From positions 4,722 to 68,721 of the IMG/VR virus record IMGVR_UViG_3300021399_000155: a DNA stretch of 64,000 nt, one strand, 5' to 3'. The position numbers were made by a program, and so were the translations under genes. This document shows positions 562-38,725 of the stretch, piece after piece (position 1 is the first letter of the stretch; each line of letters begins with the position of its first letter). The notes below the pieces were generated by a model. That model had not been told where the DNA came from and made no database searches. It worked only from the letters and a program-made list of their open reading frames with translations. The stretch is from a virus (lineage: Duplodnaviria > Caudoviricetes).

Positions 562-3365
562 GCGAGATCGTAAAACGTTTAACAGACACAGACGGTAATG
601 TTATTATTCCTATCACTAAAGCGGCTAATGTTGAAACATCGGACAAAAGCAATGTTCAAGCAAAGCTTAACCAGTTAAATAATAGACTTACATCTGTTAA
701 TACAGATATTACAAATATAAATGAAAAGATAGATCAAAAATCGGCGGCGATTGACGAGCAACTTACATCTCTGGACGATAAGATTGACCGACAAGTTGAC
801 GCTATCAACAATTCCATTACCCAGAAAGAAACTGCTCTTAACAACACTATTGCGCAGAAAGAGAATGCTGTTAATCAGAAAATTGATGGTGTTAAGCAAG
901 ATGTTTCTGAGCTAAGTGCTCATGTAGATAATGAGGTCTCCCGCATTGATCAGACAATGGAATCCTTCTCCTCTTCTATCGACGATCTCGATGCAAAAGT
1001 TGACAGAGAGGTTGAGACTTTAAACTCTACAATCACGGAAGCAGTTAACGATCTTAACACGGCTATTGATGAAAAGGCGGCGGAGCTTACAGAAAGAATT
1101 GATGGTGTCAGTGCTTCTGTTGATGACTTAGAGGAAAAAGTGGATGAGCTAATCGAGCACCCGGAATTTGAGCTTGGTGATCGTATTGCTAAAGGAACTG
1201 GGGAATTATCAATTCTTTTGGGTAATATCTCTGAAAACAACGCTTCTGGCATGAACTCTATCGCAGAGGGGAATGCCACCATTGCGTCAAATAAATCACA
1301 ACATGTGTTCGGCGAATTTAATGATCCAGATCCCTCAGAAAATTCGGCGAATATCCGAGGCGAATACGTAGAGATCGTTGGTAACGGTACTGCTGATGAT
1401 GCTAGAAGCAATGCTCGTACTCTCGATTGGTCTGGAAATGAAACTCTTGCCGGAAAGCTTACTGTCGGTGCGGATCCTACCGAGAACATGGATGTAACAA
1501 CTAAACAATATGTTGACAACGGACTGTCAACGAAAGCCAATGCATCTGACTTAGCTGCAAAGGCAAATGCTTCTGATCTAACTTTAAAAGTTGACAAACC
1601 AACCGCTTCTCCTAACGGAACATCCGGGCAATTTCTTAAGACTAACGGAGACGGTACTACTACATGGGCAGATGTATCTACTGCTACTGATGCTCAGGTG
1701 GAAAATGCTGTTGGAGATTGGTTAACTGGTCATCCCGAAGCGACCACCACGGTTCAGGACGGAGCTATTACAAAGGCAAAACTGGACTCCAATCTTCAGT
1801 CGAAAGTAGACGATGTCGATAACTTAAAGAGCGATTTAAGTATCCTTGTAATCAACGAAATAATAACCGTTCCAACGTCAACATCGTATCATGCGTTTGC
1901 TTTTGTGTCTAATCATACTTATAGACTAGTTAATAACACGACAAGCAGTATGAACGCATATACTTTCACGGAAGCAAATTCGTCTGGTGCGGTCGTCGAA
2001 ACCATCATGCAGAATTGGGTGGCGAATGAAGTCATAATGTTTACACCTACACAGAACGCGCCTGCTTTCCGTATATATGCAAATGCCAGTGGAACCGTTA
2101 CAATAGAGGATATTTCGGTCGGCGTTCCCAAGCTGGAAGTAGATGTTTCCGAACTACAAGAAAAGTCCAGTAGAACTGTGTTCACTGACGGTGTAAGACA
2201 GGTTACGGAAGCAAATACGACTTTCTTTTCACAAAGCGCAAACTTATTTAACAAAGAAACTGTGCTTGATAACTATAACCTTACACAGAACGGCTCCGAT
2301 TTTTATGAGGCAACTGGTTATATGGTGACAGAGGAATACATTGATGTCCGCAATCTGAATAGCATAAAAGCATTGTCAATTTCTAACGGCACTGTTGTAG
2401 CCGCTTCTATCCAATATGTATTGTACGATGCTAATAAAACGGCATTAAATAAGCGCACAGTTACAAATGCCGTACTTGATACCAGCAATGCAAGCTATTT
2501 AAGGTTCGGGACATCACTTGGTCAAAAAGACGTACTGATGATTGTTCCCGGAGACACCGACGTGGCAGAATATATTCCATATGGATTTACATTCGATTAT
2601 GCCGAAGAAAATGAAGCGACACTTGTAAAAATCAATCCAACGGATGATGTCATTCAGAAGCTGTTGGATAACAAAGGGAAAGACATTTATTTCAGCGCCG
2701 GGGATTATGACATAATCGCACAGTATGAAGCACATTTTGGAAGTAATTACTTCACGAATTATACGTATTACACAAGCGGTGGTGATAACCTTGGTGCGGG
2801 ATTGCCTATATACAGAGGCACAAAAGTAACATTCTCACAAGGTGCTGTTTTTACAGCTAATTACACAGGAAGTAATAACCTTGTAAGGACTAACTTTTCC
2901 GCTTTTTGGTTACAAAGTGATGTAATTGTTGATGGTTTAAGATTATCGGTGACGGGCATAAGGAACTGCATTCATGATGATTTTGATAATACCTATAATG
3001 GTACTACGATCATTAAAAACTGCCATCTGACAGGGGATACCAACATCATTGCAGGCGGTCTTGGGGTACACGAAACAGTCATTATTGAGAATTGCTATAT
3101 CGAGAGAACAAGCGGATCTGCGACTTATGACTTTTCCTATCACAACAATGGCAATGAAGGCGCACAAAGCACTATAGTTGTTAAAGACAATTACCTTGCA
3201 AGGGGATTCAGCGTGAGATGGTATGGTGCAAGCACTCTTTTGACGGATGTACTTGTTAGCAATAATAGCATGATGAATGATGTTGACATACGCGCAGAGA
3301 ACTCAACTGCAACAATCGAAAACATCAATCTTAAATCATGGAACAACGAAATAAGAACAGCATAA
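558..3365 (+). CDS. tail fibre / receptor-binding protein (coiled coil, YadA-like repeats, C-terminal beta-helix)
   Basis: 935 aa; N-terminal heptad coiled coil; YadA-head-like ASGMNSIAEG; KQYVD neck; GQFLKTNGDG and VQDGAITKAKL fibre modules; pectin-lyase-like C-terminus (IYFSAGDYD, NCIHDD). Confidence 0.8.
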   Translation: MSEIVKRLTDTDGNVIIPITKAANVETSDKSNVQAKLNQLNNRLTSVNTDITNINEKIDQKSAAIDEQLTSLDDKIDRQVDAINNSITQKETALNNTIAQKENAVNQKIDGVKQDVSELSAHVDNEVSRIDQTMESFSSSIDDLDAKVDREVETLNSTITEAVNDLNTAIDEKAAELTERIDGVSASVDDLEEKVDELIEHPEFELGDRIAKGTGELSILLGNISENNASGMNSIAEGNATIASNKSQHVFGEFNDPDPSENSANIRGEYVEIVGNGTADDARSNARTLDWSGNETLAGKLTVGADPTENMDVTTKQYVDNGLSTKANASDLAAKANASDLTLKVDKPTASPNGTSGQFLKTNGDGTTTWADVSTATDAQVENAVGDWLTGHPEATTTVQDGAITKAKLDSNLQSKVDDVDNLKSDLSILVINEIITVPTSTSYHAFAFVSNHTYRLVNNTTSSMNAYTFTEANSSGAVVETIMQNWVANEVIMFTPTQNAPAFRIYANASGTVTIEDISVGVPKLEVDVSELQEKSSRTVFTDGVRQVTEANTTFFSQSANLFNKETVLDNYNLTQNGSDFYEATGYMVTEEYIDVRNLNSIKALSISNGTVVAASIQYVLYDANKTALNKRTVTNAVLDTSNASYLRFGTSLGQKDVLMIVPGDTDVAEYIPYGFTFDYAEENEATLVKINPTDDVIQKLLDNKGKDIYFSAGDYDIIAQYEAHFGSNYFTNYTYYTSGGDNLGAGLPIYRGTKVTFSQGAVFTANYTGSNNLVRTNFSAFWLQSDVIVDGLRLSVTGIRNCIHDDFDNTYNGTTIIKNCHLTGDTNIIAGGLGVHETVIIENCYIERTSGSATYDFSYHNNGNEGAQSTIVVKDNYLARGFSVRWYGASTLLTDVLVSNNSMMNDVDIRAENSTATIENINLKSWNNEIRTA

Positions 3366-3400
3366 GTATGTAATTCAAAGCATACCGTGAAGGAGATACT

Positions 3401-3481
3401 ATGCCAGAATATGTAGGATGGGCACTAATGATAGTATTTATGATATGCTTGTTTCTAAATGCTTTATTTCACCCTAGATGA
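3401..3481 (+). CDS. 26-aa single-pass membrane peptide MPEYVGWALMIVFMICLFLNALFHPR
   Basis: read by hand (below the ORF-track cutoff); AAGGAG RBS 5 nt upstream; hydrophobic core. Confidence 0.45.
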   Translation: MPEYVGWALMIVFMICLFLNALFHPR

Positions 3482-3508
3482 TTTAAAAGTAAGGTTTTCG
3501 GAAAAGGG

Positions 3509-3533
3509 AGAGGTTCGATTCCTCTAGCGGCGA
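3509..3533 (+). ncRNA. isolated tRNA T-arm-like hairpin
   Basis: AGAGG-TTCGATT-CCTCT: perfect 5-bp stem with a canonical T-loop; no matching acceptor 5' strand found. Confidence 0.35.
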
Positions 3534-3546
3534 ATTGCCATTTTGC

Positions 3547-3594
3547 AAGGCGCAAGGTAAGTCATAGGATGAAGGTTCGATTCCTTCCGCCTTA
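3547..3594 (+). ncRNA. mini-tRNA-like element (acceptor stem + T arm, no D or anticodon arm)
   Basis: AAGGCG/CGCCTT closing an 18-nt linker and GAAGG-TTCGATT-CCTTC. Confidence 0.45.
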
Positions 3595-3864
3595 TAATTT
3601 AAAGCACCAATTTAAGGGATCTGAGGGCTGTGACAACACCATCCCTCTCTCCGCTTTTATTACGACTGAATAGAGTATATATTACAAGCAAATAGTAGCA
3701 GATGAACGCCAACAACATCTATAAATAAACGGTGGTTGCGCTGATACGCCACAAGAGAGCTATCCGGCATTGCGGGATGTCGTAGGAAGTGTGTACAACT
3801 TCTTCCCGCAACTTATTTTAAAAATAAAGTATGATAGACTTATAACTATAACGGTGACATAATA

Positions 3865-3890
3865 AAGCCGGGGCGTTTCCTCCCCGGCTT
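3865..3890. terminator. probable bidirectional intrinsic terminator between convergent genes
   Basis: AAGCCGGGG-N8-CCCCGGCTT. Confidence 0.7.
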
Positions 3891-3896
3891 GTAATT

Positions 3897-4877
3897 TTAC
3901 AAATATCTTTGATAGTTGTTTTTTACATTATTTTCTTCGATGTATACATACGACATTGTTGTGTCGAGCTTTTCGTGGCCTAATAGATGAGCTACCTCTT
4001 GTATACTCATTCCATGGTCAATTAAATTTGTTGCCATGGTTTTTCTGAAACGATGTGGATGAACTTTTTCAACACCAGCAAGACAAGCAAGCTTTGATAG
4101 ATTGCGTCTGATTGATCCGGGTTTTAACCTCGTATTGATACGTGACAGAAATAGTGGCTCTAAGTTATCTTTGCGACTGTCAAGATATCTTCGGAGCAAC
4201 AGTGCTGTCACATCATCGAAGTAGATGATGCGTTCCTTGTTTCCTTTTCCTAACACAACGCCCTCTCTCTTTTCGAGGTTGATACTGTTACGATTGAGTG
4301 AACATACTTCGCTAATTCTACATCCGGTAGCTAACATGAAGCGCATGATTGCGCTATCTCTCTGATTGAAGCAATTCTCTTGAAGCTGTGTTAGCTCTAC
4401 ATTGGATAGAGGCTTTCGAACAACCTTCTTATGTTTGATTTTCGAAAGGTTTAGACACGGATTCCTTTCGATAAGCCCCTCTTTGTAAAGCCAATTAAAA
4501 AGAGAGGAGAAGATACTTCTTTCCCCGTCCAGTGTGCTGTCTTGAACACCTCTGCTCTTTTCGGCGGAGAAATATTGGCGTATGTGATAAACTGTAATTT
4601 TATCAATCGGTATCTTGGTATATTTTAATAGTTTTTTCACTATGTAATCATACCTTGCGATTGTTCCATCGGATTTTCCTTCCACCCGTTTTGCAGATAG
4701 GAAAGCATCGAATAAGTCGATGTTCATGTCATATTGACGTTCCTGTTCTTCCGCAATGCATTTGTCAATGTTCGTCATGAATACATCTATTGTTCTTTCG
4801 ACTTGTTCTTTTGTTAAGAAACATTCTAGTTCTTTTTGGAAACATTCTATTATAGTTTGTTTCAAGGCATCAGTCAT
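3897..4877 (-). CDS. tyrosine recombinase, XerC/D-like
   Basis: TGCRISE, GKGNKER, HPHRFR, LGHEKLDTTMSY: complete R-K-H-R-H-Y catalytic set. Confidence 0.9.
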   Translation of the reverse strand: MTDALKQTIIECFQKELECFLTKEQVERTIDVFMTNIDKCIAEEQERQYDMNIDLFDAFLSAKRVEGKSDGTIARYDYIVKKLLKYTKIPIDKITVYHIRQYFSAEKSRGVQDSTLDGERSIFSSLFNWLYKEGLIERNPCLNLSKIKHKKVVRKPLSNVELTQLQENCFNQRDSAIMRFMLATGCRISEVCSLNRNSINLEKREGVVLGKGNKERIIYFDDVTALLLRRYLDSRKDNLEPLFLSRINTRLKPGSIRRNLSKLACLAGVEKVHPHRFRKTMATNLIDHGMSIQEVAHLLGHEKLDTTMSYVYIEENNVKNNYQRYL

Positions 4878-4995
4878 CGCTTACCTCCAATCTTTATGAT
4901 GGGTTATAGGCTTCTATGATTGATTCTTCTCTGTCTTTTGCCTGTTTATGATTTCTGAGAGAATCAATTGGAAGATGGTAAGCAACTTGATCTAT

Positions 4996-5024
4996 GAGGT
5001 ACTTTTCGAAGTACCTCTTTTTTT
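4996..5024 (+). terminator. intrinsic terminator
   Basis: GAGGTACTT-TTCG-AAGTACCTC followed by T7. Confidence 0.75.
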
Positions 5025-5033
5025 ACGCCTTTA

Positions 5034-5062
5034 TTGACAGATGGTTCGCTTTTGCTTATACT
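5034..5062 (+). promoter_or_regulatory. sigma-A promoter of the XRE gene
   Basis: TTGACA-17 nt-TATACT. Confidence 0.8.
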
Positions 5063-5085
5063 TAACCGCAAGGAGAACGACAGAT

Positions 5086-5430
5086 ATGTTTAGTACGGTT
5101 ATTTGTGGTGCTGTTAGTAGGAAATTACAAGAACTTCGGGTAATATATGATGTGTCAATTGAAGAAGTTGCGTCCGATCTCGGGGTTTCAGCTTCTACTG
5201 TGAAGAACATTGAGGCCGGATTAGTTGCGCCTAACGATGAAGTATTATTCTACTATGCAAATAGGTTTGAAACGACTGTTGGGGAAATACTAGACCTTGC
5301 CCCGTCATCAAGCAGGGATATTGCGGTAAATTCTGAGATCAATAAAGTGCTGAGAGCATACACGACTCGTCAGAAAGAAAAGATATTGGTTGCCTTGAAA
5401 GCTGGCGCTGGCCTTTTAGAATTGTATTAA
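5086..5430 (+). CDS. XRE/Cro-CI family HTH regulator (candidate repressor)
   Basis: LQELRVIYDVSIEEVASDLGVSASTVKNIEAG HTH; AAGGAG RBS before ATG 5086; the only + strand gene beside attP/int. Confidence 0.85.
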   Translation: MFSTVICGAVSRKLQELRVIYDVSIEEVASDLGVSASTVKNIEAGLVAPNDEVLFYYANRFETTVGEILDLAPSSSRDIAVNSEINKVLRAYTTRQKEKILVALKAGAGLLELY

Positions 5431-5449
5431 ATTTGTACAATCTGATTCT

Positions 5450-5610
5450 TGATGTAATCGAAGTGATGTAAGATTGATGTAGGGGTTTGACGATGGCTAA
5501 ACCTCCATTCTATAAGGGTTTGCGGTGTTTGTTCACTTTCAAGTCCCATTTCCCGCAGTATTAAAGTCGCCTAAAATCAGGGTTTTCGCTCTGATGCAAG
5601 GGTGATGTAA
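5450..5610 (+). mobile_element. attP: tRNA-Leu 3'-end core (5538-5557) with five arm-type repeats
   Basis: core TTCAAGT-CCCAT-TTCCCGC-A has T-loop/T-stem/acceptor/discriminator geometry; TGATGYAR direct repeats at 5450, 5464, 5475, 5592 and 5603; adjoins the integrase stop. Confidence 0.8.
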
Positions 5611-6875
5611 CCACTTTGTGGTATAATTCCTTTTAGTGCCTCATCTACGAGCAAAGATTTGTCTCTGCCGGACTTGCGTGACCAGAGATAATACTTGTGA
5701 GTGGTTGAGGCATCTTCATGTCCTAACATCTTCTGGATATCCTCAATCGTGAAAAGCTGCGACTCGTTCAGGATGGACGCATATGTCTTCCTGATGCAGT
5801 GACAGCTTCTTTGTATAATCCCAAGCTCCTTGCAAATCTCTCTCATCCGGCGGTTTACAGCGTCTTTGTGGATCCGAACACCGTCCTTGACGAACAGATC
5901 GTCTCCTTTGCTAACCGTTGCCGCAATGATTTTCACTAAGCTCTTCGCCCCGGCACTAAGTGGAATTTCCCGGCGATCTCTTCCTTTCTTTAGGTAATCG
6001 ACCGTTCGGTAGCCATCTCTATGATTTTTTCCTTGATCGTCCATGCTTGTGTTTGCCACTTCCTGTCTCTGCACTACGAGAACATCTTCTTTAAAGTCCG
6101 AGATTTTAAGGGAAACAAGCTCTCCTACTCTAAGTCCCAAACTGAAGTTCAGGACAATTGCAAGGTAAGCGACTAGCCCGGTTTCCCGGTACTTCGAAAA
6201 ACACAAGTCTGTGATCTTTTCGACTTCCTCGTCCGTAAAGAACTCTTTTTCTTCTGGTCTGCTATCAGAACCGTAGACGCTCCGTGAGATCCCGTGAACT
6301 TGTCTCGCCGGGTTTGAAGTGATAATCCGGCTGTCGACTGCATAATCGAACAGGCCATTGATAACGCCTTTCAATGTCATGGCTCTCTTCTTGGTCAATC
6401 CGTATTCCCGGATCTTCTCGGCGTACCATTGCTTAATATCGGGTGGATAGATCTTTCGAACGTCTATCTGTGTGATCTTCTCTCCGGCATAATACTTGTT
6501 CCAGAGGAATTCATCGTAGATTACCGTTTGTCCATCCACGGAAGCTTTTCTCATGGCAATCCATTTCGGGTAGATGTTCTCTAGTGTTGGAACGTCTTTC
6601 TGCTTCTTCACATCCCCGCCAAGTTCGTATTCCATGAGCAGTTGTATGAGCCCCTCTTCGGAAGTCGATGACTTTTGTCTCCTCACCCCCTCTCGATCAT
6701 AGAAGTTACAATAGTACTTGCCCCTTCTATCTAAGCTGATTTTGTATTTTTTTAGTACAATATCACGCAGATTTCTCATAATGATCTCTACGCCATCGTC
6801 AACCGATACATCACTGCCGATTATACCACGGTCAAGACCGAAAGCATAGAGGATCATTTTCTTTTGGATCGTCAT
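5577..6875 (-). CDS. int: phage integrase (tyrosine recombinase)
   Basis: LGLRVGE, HCIRKT, LGHED, HKYY; N-terminal arm-binding-like segment; adjacent attP. Confidence 0.9.
   Translation of the reverse strand: MTIQKKMILYAFGLDRGIIGSDVSVDDGVEIIMRNLRDIVLKKYKISLDRRGKYYCNFYDREGVRRQKSSTSEEGLIQLLMEYELGGDVKKQKDVPTLENIYPKWIAMRKASVDGQTVIYDEFLWNKYYAGEKITQIDVRKIYPPDIKQWYAEKIREYGLTKKRAMTLKGVINGLFDYAVDSRIITSNPARQVHGISRSVYGSDSRPEEKEFFTDEEVEKITDLCFSKYRETGLVAYLAIVLNFSLGLRVGELVSLKISDFKEDVLVVQRQEVANTSMDDQGKNHRDGYRTVDYLKKGRDRREIPLSAGAKSLVKIIAATVSKGDDLFVKDGVRIHKDAVNRRMREICKELGIIQRSCHCIRKTYASILNESQLFTIEDIQKMLGHEDASTTHKYYLWSRKSGRDKSLLVDEALKGIIPQSGYITLASERKP
6739..6761. repeat. 23-bp direct repeat, copy 1 (ATTTTGTATTTTTTTAGTACAAT)
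   Basis: identical to 50595-50617; dyad TTGTAY-N7-RTACAA. Confidence 0.75.
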
Positions 6876-7210
6876 TCCTTCCCTTTCGGCAGTTTTTCTT
6901 CATCAATCTGCCAATCGGAATTCCATGCCCAAGCACAGTAACCCATACCGTCCGAATTGTCGATCTCGTCTGGGTAGGCCATAGCCATGATTCTGCCCCA
7001 CTCCCGGAAAGTAAAGTAAAGAACGGTGCCATCATTTAGTAGTGGAACACCATGTTTATAGTTTTGGTGAACTTCGCCGGAAAAGTGGTAGCCATTCTCT
7101 TTTAAAGCATCGGCTACAATCTTCATGCGTTCATAGTAATCAATATAGTTGTTTACTTCGTAATCGTCGTTCCATCCAACCCAGTCGGAGACATATATTT
7201 TTTCACTCAT
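6872..7210 (-). CDS. hypothetical protein
   Basis: GGAGG RBS; coupled to int start. Confidence 0.7.
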   Translation of the reverse strand: MSEKIYVSDWVGWNDDYEVNNYIDYYERMKIVADALKENGYHFSGEVHQNYKHGVPLLNDGTVLYFTFREWGRIMAMAYPDEIDNSDGMGYCAWAWNSDWQIDEEKLPKGKE

Positions 7211-7363
7211 ATTATGCCCTCCAATTATCCAAGATTACCTCAACGGCTTCATCGAAGGCATCAATGATCCGATTTGCCCGGTAATTATCTCCGTCACTAT
7301 GCAATTCGCTGTACACAACGTCCATAAATTCTTCCCTGACCTCTTCAAGTTCTTTCGGCGTCA

Positions 7364-7726
7364 TCATGATTCTCCTCCCCGAGGTAACCCGTTTAGATTA
7401 TACCAGTTAAGAATGTCTCTCACTTGTCTCCCGATCTTGTAACCATTTAAATCAGAATATGTGATGTACCTTTCTTTCGTAATTGGATCCAGAATTCGAA
7501 CTCCTTCTTTTGTTGGCTCAATTACAAGCGCTTTATGTCCATCCTTCGCAATCAGTTCTGTCCCGGTAACAGGCTTCTTAGCTTCGACGTTGTTCTGCCC
7601 TTTGATAATGTCGCAAGCATAATCATCAAGAACAAGAGTATTGAATCCTTCGATCCTATATAAAGTTCTTCTGTCCGTCTTAATAACCTCGCCGATCTTA
7701 ATGGTTAAAGTGTCTCCTACATTCAT
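7364..7726 (-). CDS. hypothetical protein
   Basis: operon packing, RBS. Confidence 0.65.
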   Translation of the reverse strand: MNVGDTLTIKIGEVIKTDRRTLYRIEGFNTLVLDDYACDIIKGQNNVEAKKPVTGTELIAKDGHKALVIEPTKEGVRILDPITKERYITYSDLNGYKIGRQVRDILNWYNLNGLPRGGES

Positions 7727-7729
7727 TCT

Positions 7730-7954
7730 TTATTCACCCCTCTTTTCGAACATTGGTTTATTCCATGAAGTAGATGACATATATGTCCCTTTTGTAAAAA
7801 CATATTCTTCATCATCTGCAACGCTTAAATATTTTTTCATATGCTTTGCTTCTTTTGTGTGCGATGTTTCGTGCTCTAAGTGATAAGAAATCCATTCCTT
7901 AATTTCTGCACCAAGAAACACCGTTCCCACAGGATAACTCAGGATATTTTTCAT
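7730..7954 (-). CDS. hypothetical protein
   Basis: operon packing, RBS. Confidence 0.6.
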   Translation of the reverse strand: MKNILSYPVGTVFLGAEIKEWISYHLEHETSHTKEAKHMKKYLSVADDEEYVFTKGTYMSSTSWNKPMFEKRGE

Positions 7955-8314
7955 TCGCCTTTCATCCTCTTTTCTGACTATTCAAACATCGGACAAATTT
8001 CGTTTTTATCTCTCAATGGTACTTTCGAAGCATCCAGTACTGTTCGTAATTTGACACTCATCATACTCATGCACCTTAAACGCATCTTCCGGGTAATACA
8101 TGCATAAGTCATGTTCACAATCATAATGTATGCAATTGCCGCAACATTCTTCCATTTTTTCACCTCCTTAAATGGTTCTTTAAATAGGTCAATCATCTTT
8201 TTCTGACTTGGCACATATTTTCCCAACAATATACCCGCACATAAAGATTACATTTCCAATCGCTAAATATATCATGCACATTCTATACGACCTACTTTAG
8301 ATTATATGTTTGCT

Positions 8315-8479
8315 TTAGAGTACAATCTTTTTTGGCTTTTGCGGAAGAATGCGTTTACCGCAATATTGGCACTTATCTTCGTGATAGTATCCACGTTTGC
8401 CGCAATACGGGCAAGCCGCACCTTCTGCTATTGTTCCCTTCCAGATTGTTTTCCATGTGGGTATGGCATCGTTCTTCAT
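8315..8479 (-). CDS. 54-aa double zinc-ribbon protein
   Basis: hand translation: ...AACPYCGKRGYYHEDKCQYCGKR...; ATGA overlap with the upstream ORF. Confidence 0.55.
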   Translation of the reverse strand: MKNDAIPTWKTIWKGTIAEGAACPYCGKRGYYHEDKCQYCGKRILPQKPKKIVL

Positions 8480-8643
8480 TCTGTCACCTGTGCTTTGGGT
8501 TGCTTTATGTTTGGACAGTTATCACCTTTGCTTTGTGTTTTGCGTTCTGCTTCTATTCGCCACTCAAGATACCTTAACACGCCATTCAACGTAGCTATAA
8601 CGTCTTTGTTTTTTTCATCGTAAAAATGATAATTCTTCTTCAT
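8476..8643 (-). CDS. hypothetical protein (55 aa, MKKNYHFYDE...)
   Basis: internal ATG of track ORF 8476..8847; the upstream part of that ORF overlaps the structured RNA element. Confidence 0.5.
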   Translation of the reverse strand: MKKNYHFYDEKNKDVIATLNGVLRYLEWRIEAERKTQSKGDNCPNIKQPKAQVTE

Positions 8644-8757
8644 AGTGTTTTTTCTGATAATTTTATAAATACCAAAGGTGAGGCACGACCTCCAATCCGC
8701 TCGCTCCGATTGCACTGCGGCGTAAGGACAGTTCACGTTGTTCTTCCCCTGTGCCCG

Positions 8758-8843
8758 CCGCCTGTGAGGACTTGAACCTCTAGTCAGTCCCCTTGGTAAA
8801 TGGTGTTTTAAATGCGGATGGACTTTCTCCATTAGGACAGCCG
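8758..8843 (-). ncRNA. degenerate tRNA-shaped RNA with a 29-nt anticodon-position loop
   Basis: CGGCTGT/ACAGGCG acceptor (6 of 7 bp); TCC-TAAT-GGA mini D arm; AGTCC/GGACT stem; GAGG-TTCAAGT-CCTC T arm. Confidence 0.4.
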
Positions 8844-9239
8844 CCAATTAAACCCTATCCATCTATTGATAGTGAAACCGCAATATGTACTATTATGTGA
8901 TGCATTAAGTTAATTTGTGAACGATTTCCATCGCAACAAGCAACGCAGATTTCCACCCTCGAATGTACTCATCATTTTCACTAATCGCTTTGTCTGCATC
9001 ATTAAAATACTCTTCGAGTTCTTTAATTGCTTCTTCTTTCGTCATGCTAATCGTTCCTTCGGTGTGGTGCTTTTAAGTTATTTGTACCCACTTTCTAATT
9101 GTTTCGTACAGTTCTTTGGTAATTTGCAGTAGTAGTATTCCTAGCCATTTCGGGATTTGAAATAGCACTTTTTCGCCTTTGACCAAATAATACTGATCGG
9201 CGATCCCCCTTGTGTTATGCCATACGCTAAACTTCCACA

Positions 9240-35944: not shown

Positions 35945-36128
35945 CTTTCTTTCCTTTCTCTCTTGTTTTAATAAATGGATCTTCAAAAGGGCGTTTCATG
36001 AGACGCTCATATAGGCGATCCTTCTGAAACTGGCTCTTTTTCTCTACCACACTACGTATTCCTCTACACAATTTTTCGTCATTCGACAATTCCTTCTTCA
36101 TCAACTGCCTCCTCTTCACTAAGATCAT
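35901..36128 (-). CDS. hypothetical basic protein
   Basis: operon packing; start uncertain. Confidence 0.4.
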   Translation of the reverse strand: MILVKRRQLMKKELSNDEKLCRGIRSVVEKKSQFQKDRLYERLMKRPFEDPFIKTREKGKKDDKKAEKSEDISES

Positions 36129-37374
36129 CTATATTTAACAAAGACTCAAGGTAGTCAGCATCTCCGTCATGATATTTAATGAGATACTCATTAGAAACTG
36201 CCTTAAATGACTTTGTAGCATCTTTGTTTCTGAATACTACGCCCTCTCTCATTCCGCCGTCGATTACACTAGGATCTCCGGCAGCATAATTGAGGACTTC
36301 TCTTACAGTGTCTGGTAAAGTAATATCCACACCGACAACTGGAACACAAGGGATATTGTATTTCTTAAGTTCTTCTGTCATCTCGATTGGATTAAAACGC
36401 TTACGTGTTCCATCCATGTAACCGTAGATCAGATTGAAAGCTCTAAAATCTATATCTGGAATGTATTTTCTTGACATGATCTTGTAACCGAACGTTTCAC
36501 CCTGAATAGTTACAAAGCTAAGTTCAGGATGTTTTTCAAGGATGTCTTTCAGAACATTTTCGGCGTTGTACTTAATCGCCATCTTCCAATATACATTCTC
36601 GTCATAATAACATTTTCTGTCCGGCGTCCTCATTACTACGTTCCGGGAACAGACACGGAAATCAAACTTCCGGCCACTTCGTTTCATCGTGAACGTGGTT
36701 GACGTTCCATCTATCTTTTCCGTTGCAATCCACTTAGTCGCTTTGTCAGTTAAAATCTGAGGACAATTTTGGATCCTCTCCTCGTCGGTTTTACTAACCC
36801 AATCAGGCCAACCCTTCTTCCGATCCTTCTTTCTACCAAAGAAAACAAAAAGGAGCTTTCTTCCCCACTCTCTCTTCATTAACCATCGAAAAGGCTGATG
36901 TTTTAACAGCTTTCCATTTCTACGAGCCATGAGATTATACTTGTCAGGCGACGCCGCTTTTCGCTTTCTGTCCACTACATTATAGTAGGTAATCCCAATG
37001 ACTTTTGTCATGTCGTCACCTTCACTATATTCTTCGCCGTTTGCCATGATAACTCGACTGCCATCAGGATATTCAACAACTTCATATCCAAAATCTTTGG
37101 GGGACATAAGAAGTCCCTGAGAGAGAACGGTTCCCTTGCAGAGCTTTTGTGTTTTTACTTTATAGCCATATTTTTCCATGAAAGCGAACGGTTCAGTCGC
37201 CGGGACTAATGAGTCAATCTCGATGTAGATCCCAAGATCGCCGGGCTTAAACTGTCCTTTTGATGTAACAGTTGTCCATCCAAGGACGTGAGTTAACTCA
37301 ATCCTGTCATATCCGGGAATTGATTCTATCTCACCGACTATTACTACATGTGCTAATTTTCTCTCCTCTTCCAC
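36079..37374 (-). CDS. RNA ligase, Rnl2/DRB0094 family
   Basis: N-terminal OB fold; TEKIDGTS (motif I); QGETFG; EGVVFR; FKAVSNEYL; AAGGAGG RBS before GTG. Confidence 0.9.
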   Translation of the reverse strand: MEEERKLAHVVIVGEIESIPGYDRIELTHVLGWTTVTSKGQFKPGDLGIYIEIDSLVPATEPFAFMEKYGYKVKTQKLCKGTVLSQGLLMSPKDFGYEVVEYPDGSRVIMANGEEYSEGDDMTKVIGITYYNVVDRKRKAASPDKYNLMARRNGKLLKHQPFRWLMKREWGRKLLFVFFGRKKDRKKGWPDWVSKTDEERIQNCPQILTDKATKWIATEKIDGTSTTFTMKRSGRKFDFRVCSRNVVMRTPDRKCYYDENVYWKMAIKYNAENVLKDILEKHPELSFVTIQGETFGYKIMSRKYIPDIDFRAFNLIYGYMDGTRKRFNPIEMTEELKKYNIPCVPVVGVDITLPDTVREVLNYAAGDPSVIDGGMREGVVFRNKDATKSFKAVSNEYLIKYHDGDADYLESLLNIDDLSEEEAVDEEGIVE

Positions 37375-37511
37375 TTTAGTCCTCCTTTTTAACGGCAACT
37401 ATCATCTGATAAAGCTTTGCCAATTCCAGAACCTCGTCAATTCTATCCTTGTAGTTTTCATAGAGAACTTTAAATCGTTCTAGTTCTTCTGGTGTTACGT
37501 TATCATTCATC

Positions 37512-37862: not shown

Positions 37863-37935
37863 CGACCATGGGAGGAATCGAACCTACCGATTTCCGCCTT
37901 TCGTGGCGGCGCCTTAACCTCTTGGCTACATGGTC
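37863..37935 (-). tRNA. tRNA-like gene with an aberrant 6-nt anticodon loop (undetermined/pseudo)
   Basis: GACCATG/CATGGTC; GCC-AAGAGGTTAA-GGC; CCGCC-ACGAAA-GGCGG; GTAGG-TTCGATT-CCTCC. Confidence 0.65.
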
Positions 37936-38092: not shown

Positions 38093-38094
38093 AT

Positions 38095-38245
38095 GGTGAG
38101 TTTAAGGTCGCTCAACCGCACATCCCGCATGTTTGGCCTGACGTTTCGCCTAGATCCTTTCATTACAGTTTGCGCATACCATAACTAATCAGTCCTATAT
38201 CTGCTACTTTGTCACTGGGCTTGCGGATATTTGCTCTCAGCCCCG
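38095..38245 (-). ncRNA. structured non-coding spacer in the tRNA island
   Basis: no ORF; hairpins, e.g. GGTTGAG..CTCACC ending in CCA. Confidence 0.35.
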
Positions 38246-38247
38246 CA

Positions 38248-38333
38248 TCGGAACGACAAGATTTGCACTTGTGCCTCTGGTGGTATGGGCGAACCATTGC
38301 CCCCAGTGTCTTAGTCTACTTGACCACATTCCG
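38248..38333 (-). tRNA. tRNA-Pro-like gene with a 30-nt expanded anticodon arm
   Basis: C1:G72 and A73 (CGGAATG/CGTTCCG-A); GTC/GAC D arm; ACAAG-TGCAAAT-CTTGT; arm CTGG-GGGC-AATGGTTC-GCCC-ATACCA-CCAG. Confidence 0.6.
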
Positions 38334-38334
38334 A

Positions 38335-38541
38335 TATGCACCATATCCCCAAAGGTGCGCCCTACTTCCGCATTGCCAGACCGCTGCGTTTTCAGATTTC
38401 TCACTCGACTGGCTTTCTGGATGCCAACAGGAGGAGGATTCGTCTTACCTCTCGCGTCATTTACACGAACGTCATGTAAATAGGTTGAGGCTTTCAGGAG
38501 ACTGCAAGCCTATCTGGTTTAACGTGGGAAGATACCACGGC
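38335..38541 (-). ncRNA. ~200-nt multi-hairpin non-coding RNA candidate
   Basis: GTGG/CCAC, AGGCTT/AAGCCT, ATTTACA/TGTAAAT, GAGG/CCTC and GCACC/GGTGC stems. Confidence 0.4.
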
Positions 38542-38542
38542 A

Positions 38543-38621
38543 TTGGAACGGCAGGAATCGAACCTGCATCGGGGCTTCCTCGGCCGCCATATTCCCTGCT
38601 CTACCATTGAGCTACGTTCTA
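38543..38621 (-). tRNA. tRNA-like gene with a 26-nt expanded anticodon arm
   Basis: TAGAACG/CGTTCCA; GCTC-AATGGTA-GAGC; GCAGG-TTCGATT-CCTGC; arm GGGAATATGGCGGCCGAGGAAGCCCC. Confidence 0.6.
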
Positions 38622-38725
38622 AGAAGTTCTGCCGTTATGTTTAACTCGGGACGGCTGAACGAGTTCGCCCGATCCTTTATTCCTTTTTGAGTGGTGATGA
38701 ATAAATGGTAAGAACGTCCACCACG

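Follow-up and report, generated by a model that had tools for sequence, protein, structure and literature searches.

The window analyzed here is a stretch of 64,000 nucleotides (nt) of viral DNA (Duplodnaviria; Caudoviricetes), positions 4,722 to 68,721 of the 68.7-kilobase (kb) IMG/VR virus record IMGVR_UViG_3300021399_000155, which is rated ~43% complete. Its minus strand carries, at 38621-38543, a 79-nt tRNA-shaped gene with a remodelled anticodon arm, the subject of this report. With the Rfam tRNA model (RF00005; gathering score 29), the element reached 45.1 bits, and its E of 2.2e-6, calculated over the whole window, puts it far outside chance. As an earlier note on this DNA had claimed, the D and T arms are canonical and the anticodon arm is 26 nt long. 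The alignment to RF00005 revealed a 7-bp acceptor stem, a D arm with G18 and G19 and a T arm with UUCRA, all features of the cloverleaf, whereas the 5-bp stem and 7-nt loop with U33 and a purine at position 37, as needed for decoding, are replaced by the 26-nt arm with G33; here, 19 nt replace 11 model positions of the anticodon arm. U8 and A9 lie between the 5′ strand of the acceptor stem and the D arm, A26 follows the D arm, and the bases GAU link the 26-nt arm to the T arm. No CCA is encoded 3′ of the element, where the bases that follow are UGC. The parts of the element are listed below, where R1 is our own covariance model of the subfamily to which we assign it (subfamily 'a') and A4 is the alignment of its seven sequences, with homologues designated by L numbers.

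38543..38621, minus strand: whole tRNA-shaped RNA gene, subfamily 'a'; Rfam 45.1 bits, R1 107.5 bits
38615..38621, minus strand: 5′ strand of the acceptor stem, UAGAACG, paired with 38544-38550
38598..38612, minus strand: D arm GCUC-AAUGGUA-GAGC with G18 and G19, from the sequence and the Rfam alignment; pair 13-22 covaries
38571..38596, minus strand: remodelled anticodon arm of 26 nt, GGGAAUAUGGCGGCCGAGGAAGCCCC (a canonical arm has 17 nt), identical in the window copy, L043, L044 and L045
38585..38593, minus strand: 9-nt bulge (or linker end) AAUAUGGCG, in which only the 7th base varies (A4)
38576..38582, minus strand: 7-nt loop CGAGGAA, invariant in A4, with G at the place of U33; the closing pair 38584/38574 is G-C, and U-A in L035
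38551..38567, minus strand: T arm GCAGG-UUCGAUU-CCUGC; pair 49-65 is G-C, G·U or A-U across the subfamily
38544..38550, minus strand: 3′ strand of the acceptor stem, CGUUCCA, paired with 38615-38621
38543, minus strand: discriminator base A73, which is A in six of seven homologues

The body of the element is widely shared. An acceptor stem CGGAACG/CGUUCCG combined with a GCAGG T arm forms a chassis common to many phage tRNA-like RNAs and to phage tRNA-Ile(UAU) genes, and a scan of IMG/VR for the T arm and the 3′ acceptor strand returned 28 contigs. Around 10 of these hold ordinary tRNAs on the chassis body, mostly tRNA-Ile(UAU), and the remaining contigs have the 5′ half CGGAACGUAGCUCA...GAGC in common, with mutually unrelated middles of 24 to >100 nt. 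Scans for the middle of the window copy revealed six further distinct versions of it in eight other contigs, which derive from animal-gut viromes and metagenomes and from one Eubacterium metagenome-assembled genome (MAG).

L035: a 38.9-kb phage with terminal repeats
L043 (identical to L048): a 64.7-kb phage
L044: a 129-kb contig
L045 (identical to L047): a metagenome contig
L051: a 30.3-kb phage rated complete
L042: a contig of 101 kb in the MAG of a Eubacterium sp. (goat jejunum)

Against R1 these six homologues score 94.7-108.6 bits, the next chassis relatives 61.6 bits or less and ordinary tRNAs ~32 bits or lower. The window copy has the centre GGGAAUAUGNCGNNCGAGGAANNCCM inside a CGGAACG-type tRNA chassis, the combination by which subfamily 'a' is defined. 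A metagenome pattern demanding both arm junctions gave no match, and one of four loci returned by a second metagenome pattern (L046) was discarded as a chance match within a coding region. The tip pattern was not found in 400 other bacterial genomes in the order of the carrier MAG, blastn of the whole array against GenBank phages matched only the ordinary tRNA-Gln and tRNA-Thr and not the element, and a search of the literature found no description of this tRNA-shaped RNA family.

Over the seven sequences, 95.9% of the stem cells are paired, compared with 30-50% when the partners are slid by 1-3 columns. Five pairs have been altered on both sides with pairing kept (six cells in A4): pair 1-72 (C-G, U-A and G-C), pair 6-67 (C-G to U-A), pair 13-22 (C-G to U-A, in L042), pair 49-65 (G-C to A-U) and one pair of the remodelled arm (G-C to U-A). 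Double-sided changes are present in every helix, and the observed covariation score was reached by none of 500 shuffles. Variable columns make up 6 of 26 in the centre and 20 of 54 in the body; four sequences have the same centre, while their bodies depart from that of the window copy at 6-9 places, and the bulge AAUAUGNCG and the loop CGAGGAA are constant throughout, apart from N. The remodelled arm thus appears at least as conserved as the tRNA handle that carries it. The suggestion of the earlier note that the element could be a non-decoding tRNA mimic is supported by this conservation, by the compensatory substitutions and by the nearly invariant tip, and we consider it highly probable that the element is a conserved and functional tRNA-shaped RNA that does not decode.

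The remodelled arm can be folded in two near-equivalent ways. In the first drawing, GGG and GC pair with GC and CCC around the loop CGAGGAA, with a 9-nt bulge on the 5′ side; this is the 5-bp GGGGC/GCCCC stem with a 9-nt insert that had been proposed in the earlier note. RNAfold and RNAalifold favour the second, in which G35-(N36)-G38-G39-C40 pairs with GCCCC and a 9-nt linker is left. Over the seven homologues, 32 of 35 cells are paired in the bulge drawing, compared with 30 of 35 in the linker drawing, and columns 39-49 show a replacement of G-C by U-A; the comparison slightly favours the bulge drawing. The hexamer CGGCCG becomes CGUACG in L035, a double change that retains the palindrome, and two RNA molecules could pair through this hexamer, an idea prompted by that single sequence.

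Subfamily 'a' is present on at least five gut Firmicutes-phage backbones, and both the unit that precedes the element and the adjoining genes vary among them. The preceding unit is a 103-nt spacer in the window, a 208-nt module in L035, a 150-nt module in L042, L043 and L045, and a tRNA-like unit in L044; the adjoining genes encode PolA and SSB in L042/L043, a Rep protein in L035, Pfam-less open reading frames (ORFs) in L051 and a ligase in the window. An all-against-all comparison of the proteins of five carrier records, which include the window's own incomplete record, yielded the endolysins as the only shared family, in four of the five records, with integrases or NrdD shared by three. The carrier endolysins contain GH25, CHAP, LysM and choline-binding repeats, types that point to Gram-positive hosts. 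In the complete 30.3-kb phage (L051), ARAGORN finds no tRNA gene in the 14-kb locus around the element and R1 has no other strong match there, which leaves the element as the sole tRNA-like gene found in that locus. The ordinary tRNAs of the window have acceptor and T arms that differ from those of the element, so that the element is an inherited or transferred module and not one made in the window phage from a resident tRNA. The earlier note had the element arising independently of another altered tRNA, at 38248-38333; the inserts of the two are indeed unrelated, and their acceptor stems are the same except for one wobble, but the element, a module shared by at least five phage backbones, did not originate here.

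The minus-strand array reads, in order, tRNA-Ile(UAU), tRNA-Thr(UGU), the 103-nt spacer, the element, a ~208-nt module, the tRNA-like unit at 38333-38248, a ~150-nt module, tRNA-Gln(UUG) and a tRNA with a 6-nt anticodon loop. A PD-(D/E)XK gene lies upstream of the array, with a 111-amino acid ORF and the RNA ligase gene downstream.

38622..38724, minus strand: upstream spacer of 103 nt, the 5′ 49 nt of which have similar sequences elsewhere
38335..38542, minus strand: ORF-free RNA module of ~208 nt, beginning directly 3′ of the element, 76-96% identical in eight loci
36079..37398, minus strand: RNA ligase gene (PF09414 and PHA02142 OB domain), 1.1 kb downstream of the element, which does not need it

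The 49-nt stretch of the spacer (38674-38722, minus strand) has counterparts of 90-92% identity in L002, L024 and L027, which likewise come after the 3′ end of a tRNA-like unit. Relatives of the ~208-nt module are found in L024, L027, L040, L035, L033, L041, L042 and L044, always with tRNA or tRNA-like units at their borders. The stretch 38339-38541 is covered by RNA-library contigs (204-226 nt, variable in their middle part) that come from four metatranscriptome studies, and the module is probably a separate structured RNA. The ~150-nt module (38094-38246, minus strand) has both ends conserved in L042, L043/L048 and L045/L047, immediately before the subfamily 'a' element, and terminates in a hairpin and ACCAU just 5′ of the next tRNA-like unit. 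The window also encodes a kinase-HD protein and RlaP; together with the RNA ligase and the tRNAs for Ile(UAU), Thr(UGU) and Gln(UUG), these constitute the usual phage kit against tRNA damage and for RNA repair (PMC7824862).

Other tRNA-shaped sequences of the window had been grouped with the element in the earlier note, as five RNAs altered specifically in the anticodon arm. The unit at 37863-37935 (minus strand) bears this out, being tRNA-shaped (Rfam, 45.6 bits) and having a loop of only 6 nt, ACGAAA, on a GC-rich anticodon stem of 5 bp; ARAGORN assigns it no anticodon. The others fare less well: nothing tRNA-like was found at 8758, and 38248-38333 and 3546-3595 reach only 23.8 and 23.7 bits, respectively, with R1. 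The latter is a 50-nt stretch (plus strand, E ~4e-4) near integrase genes and may be a tRNA fragment or a remnant of an attachment (att)-type site. The Rfam tRNA model at E ≤ 1 gave no match in 3300-9100, a region that covers both the 3547 and the 8758 elements.

Beyond the window, the chassis is found with further kinds of middle. Several phages conserve tRNA-like RNAs of ~150 nt in which the CGGAACG/GCAGG chassis encloses a central insert of ~100 nt (L040:9175-9325, plus strand; L024:1342-1493; L029:4033-4182; also in L030 and L039). The chassis also carries a second tip family (L002:223-312, L024:1628-1717 and L027:4973-5062), the middle of which, UUUGACGGUAAACAACAAG....UCGUCACCUACUUGUGAU, has 41 nt and contains two complementary pairs of 5 bp each, UGACG/CGUCA and ACAAG/CUUGU, in the arrangement of a possible pseudoknot. 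L002 and L024 differ by only 4 nt in this middle, while a G-C pair of the T stem is replaced by A-U. The array of L045 additionally includes a 72-nt 'tRNA-SeC(tca)' called by ARAGORN (L045:1343-1415, minus strand), which is likely an opal (UGA) suppressor tRNA and hints at stop-codon recoding in that phage.

As the alternative to a mimic, the earlier note had proposed an enzyme-spliced tRNA co-located with an RNA ligase. On such a reading, the 9-10-nt insert would be excised and the ends resealed by the phage ligase and kinase to produce a tRNA-Pro(AGG)-like adaptor. With introns allowed, ARAGORN does call a 'tRNA-Pro(agg)', assuming an intron of 10 nt and mismatches at two stem pairs; once the bulge is taken out, four of the seven sequences have a fully paired GGGGC/GCCCC stem around a 7-nt loop; and ligase, kinase-HD protein and RlaP are all encoded in the window. 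However, when all contiguous excisions were enumerated in the seven sequences, none yielded an arm with U33; the best, with the bulge out (GGGGC-CGAGGAA-GCCCC), leaves G33 at this universal U and a variable region of 2-3 nt, with a single stem mismatch in each of L035 and L051 and two or more in L042. The supposed intron is conserved as strongly as its exons, and a bulge-helix-bulge cannot fit, nine nt being too few for a 4-bp helix and two 3-nt bulges. Bacterial ProRS needs G72, which is not kept here (pair 1-72 is C-G, U-A, G-C or C·A), and A34 is unusual in bacteria outside tRNA-Arg. The splicing endonuclease domain PF01974 is absent from the five carrier records, and PF09414 and RtcB ligases are absent from the three carrier phages rated 100% complete (38.9, 64.7 and 30.3 kb). 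The ligase adjoins a tRNA-like array in the window and in L032, and a PF09414 ligase lies ~2 kb from the element in record G404; the closest relatives of the window's ligase (L006-L008) have no tRNA genes within 6 kb. Since complete carriers do without the ligase and its relatives without nearby tRNAs, the adjacency is the ordinary clustering of phage tRNA and RNA-repair genes and not a requirement. A decoding adaptor is therefore among the least probable explanations of the element, which, to judge from its sequence, almost certainly reads no codon and is no spliced tRNA.

A greater, although still small, probability attaches to the tRNA shape serving purely as punctuation, a signal for RNase P and RNase Z that frees and stabilizes the flanking ~208-nt and ~150-nt modules or mRNAs, with no role for the middle. 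In six of the seven contexts the element does directly adjoin conserved ORF-free modules, on one side or on both; in L051 it sits between ORFs on the same strand, and predictions placed neither a promoter nor a terminator on the minus strand within the array. The contigs that represent the 208-nt module in RNA libraries of four studies likewise end near the borders of the flanking tRNA-like units, but assembled contigs cannot reveal RNA ends. Such a signal needs only the acceptor-T stack and the elbow (PMC4919913), so the middle should drift, and instead the bulge and loop are invariant, with changes occurring in the stems. Punctuation and binding by the tip may, moreover, be compatible. Equally improbable as a decoding tRNA is a site acting in the DNA, such as an operator, a recombination or att site, with CGGCCG/CGTACG as a protein-binding palindrome. 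The double change in L035 that retains the palindrome would suit such a site, as would the identical 23-26-mers that the chassis ends form within and between arrays and the shuffled order of modules among phages. Nevertheless, the compensatory changes preserve RNA pairing far from the palindrome, the full cloverleaf is retained, unlike the 3′ half in tRNA att sites, and the integrases of the window are ~32 kb away.

Several observations weigh against a conserved, functional RNA with a working tip. Four metatranscriptome runs cover the neighbouring module and not 38543-38621, and the small word shares in these runs were traced to tRNA-Gln and that module. The acceptor stem of the window copy contains an A2·C71 mismatch. 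The mean column identity of 92% leaves few covariation events, the difference in variability between centre and body is statistically not firm, and recent horizontal spread could explain part of the constancy of the centre. The arm fold has two registers, with pair 40-48 broken in two of seven sequences and pair 27-52 in one. Finally, the decoy role proposed below is pure inference, with a hypothetical partner. The missing coverage and the mismatch, together with the failure of ARAGORN in default mode to call the element, would also be expected of a decaying pseudogene, a duplicated phage tRNA that received an insertion in its anticodon arm and is now drifting. We regard this as very unlikely: seven sequences, spread over at least five backbones, have this insert in common, compensatory changes occur in all four helices, the loop and bulge are invariant, the first acceptor pair is restored as U1-A72 in the window copy (C1·A72 in L035), and the element has been retained through moves into different contexts.

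Other candidate identities were tried and rejected. For a group I intron tRNA, an intron of ~200 nt or more is expected; the insert has 9 nt, and the window has no Rfam intron match. ARAGORN finds no tmRNA, and pair 3-70 is G3-C70 and not G3·U70. A reading frame of 23 codons from an AUG in the bulge, as for a peptide or tag, is unconserved in L035 and L042. Antisense targeting was dismissed on finding matches to the tip no commoner in the Eubacterium MAG than those to a reversed control. GGA motifs as in CsrA sites, and the likeness of CGAGGAAG to P4 of RNase P, the signal recognition particle RNA and the sarcin-ricin loop, were noted by eye and are within chance.

Taking the element as a functional, non-decoding RNA, we propose that it would be transcribed as part of the minus-strand operon that carries the tRNA array. 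Host RNase P would cut the 5′ end and RNase Z or exonucleases the 3′ end, after which CCA would be added and the RNA would fold into an L and accumulate. This processing is suggested by the parts that have been kept, the elbow and the acceptor-T stack, which are those the enzymes measure: for RNase P, RNase Z and the CCA enzymes, the elbow is the point from which distances along the acceptor-T stack are measured (PMC4919913). In E. coli, engineered tRNAs with a replaced anticodon arm are processed and stable (PMC3753655). Less securely, the fixed tip may be the working end and bind one specific partner. That partner would most likely be host-encoded, as the only protein family common to the carriers is the endolysins. 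Our preferred candidate would be a protein that normally holds the tRNA body and acts on the anticodon loop, for example an anticodon nuclease of a defence or toxin system, or a modification enzyme, which the RNA would occupy as an uncleavable competitor. The element travels with replacement tRNAs and, in some phages, with repair enzymes. On balance, we lean towards the whole chain, from a conserved mimic processed out of an operon to a fixed tip bound by a host partner as a decoy; the decoy step taken by itself is tentative and rather doubtful. Unlikely on present evidence is that gut Firmicutes phages possess a modular toolkit of tRNA-scaffolded aptamers, with one chassis, through which host enzymes would process and stabilize the RNA, and interchangeable tips (26 nt, or inserts of 40-100 nt), each neutralizing a different tRNA-gripping host factor, such as an anticodon nuclease of a defence system, and traded among unrelated phages like anti-defence genes. 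In a rarer variant of this idea, the arm, which with its 9-nt bulge flipped out still has the shape of a 7-nt loop on a 5-bp stem, might let the never-charged RNA pose as an uncharged tRNA to host T-box leaders.

The nearest natural counterparts are RNA C (species 1, 139 nt) and RNA D (species 2, 119 nt) of phage T4 (NC_000866: 70908-71171), small stable RNAs that, like the element, are encoded inside a phage tRNA array. RNA C has a tRNA-like acceptor stem and a T arm, CCGGG-UUCGAAU-CCCGG, without a usable anticodon arm, and the element is likewise non-decoding. The acceptor stem of RNA C, CGGAACG/CGUUUCG, is the chassis stem except for G3·U70, with six of seven pairs identical (rnaC is at L049:2909-3047, minus strand); G3·U70 is the alanine-identity pair, also used by tmRNA. 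With R1, T4 rnaC scores 24.7 bits, the level of ordinary tRNAs (21-32 bits), a likeness no more than generic, and the occurrence of CGAGGAA in its 5′ part was treated as chance. RNA C also differs in its lack of a canonical D arm, its 50-nt 5′ extension, its 60 nt of additional length and its proteobacterial host, where the host of the element would be a Firmicute. To our knowledge, T4 RNA C and D have been known for long and never explained. The element has the array position, the tRNA-like acceptor stem and T arm and the lack of an anticodon that mark their class.

In design, the element is closest to the engineered tRNA scaffold of Ponchon and Dardel (PMC3753655), in which the acceptor, T and D arms are retained and the anticodon stem-loop is swapped for a hairpin RNA. 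Such chimeras are recognized by cellular enzymes, precisely processed and protected from decay (PMC3753655). By this analogy, the element would be a natural tRNA scaffold with an aptamer-like tip, although the scaffold is a man-made carrier whereas the element is natural and conserved, with a fixed 26-nt tip. YrlA-type Y RNAs, some of which are phage-encoded, are non-coding and possess a tRNA-like domain, which is cut by RNase P and receives CCA (Chen et al. 2014, PMC4201824; RF02553), and a role as decoys of anticodon nucleases has been proposed for these RNAs (PMC7790460). YrlA, however, is encoded beside Ro60, which it binds via a stem of its own ends, and has a permuted tRNA-like part, whereas the element has the topology of an ordinary tRNA; TROVE/Ro60 is absent from the five carrier records and the Rfam YrlA model (RF02553) gave no match. 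Plant mitochondrial t-elements and the mascRNA of MALAT1 are RNase P substrates (PMC4919913) that are tRNA-shaped and non-decoding and lie within longer transcripts, where RNase P and RNase Z cut them. A conserved middle module is not known in these, whereas the tip is the most constant part of the element. The tRNA punctuation of mitochondria and the plant t-elements are the analogues of the purely punctuating role considered above. Phage tRNAs of the T5 type with altered anticodon loops escape host anticodon nucleases; they belong to the same arena and are altered in the same arm, but they decode and carry point changes only, whereas the element, with nine additional bases and G33, cannot decode.

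Phage tRNA genes are usually interpreted as helpers in codon usage or as spares against defences that cut tRNA. The array described here also holds RNAs that keep only the tRNA parts gripped by the host, with a fixed and selected tip in place of the anticodon. Tools that find tRNAs miss such genes or mislabel them as intron-bearing tRNA-Pro, which is of consequence for annotation. A compact family of 79 nt that moves among unrelated phages provides a handle for finding the partner, and if this partner were a defence nuclease or a tRNA enzyme, the element would represent RNA-based counter-defence of a new class and set a natural precedent for the tRNA scaffold.

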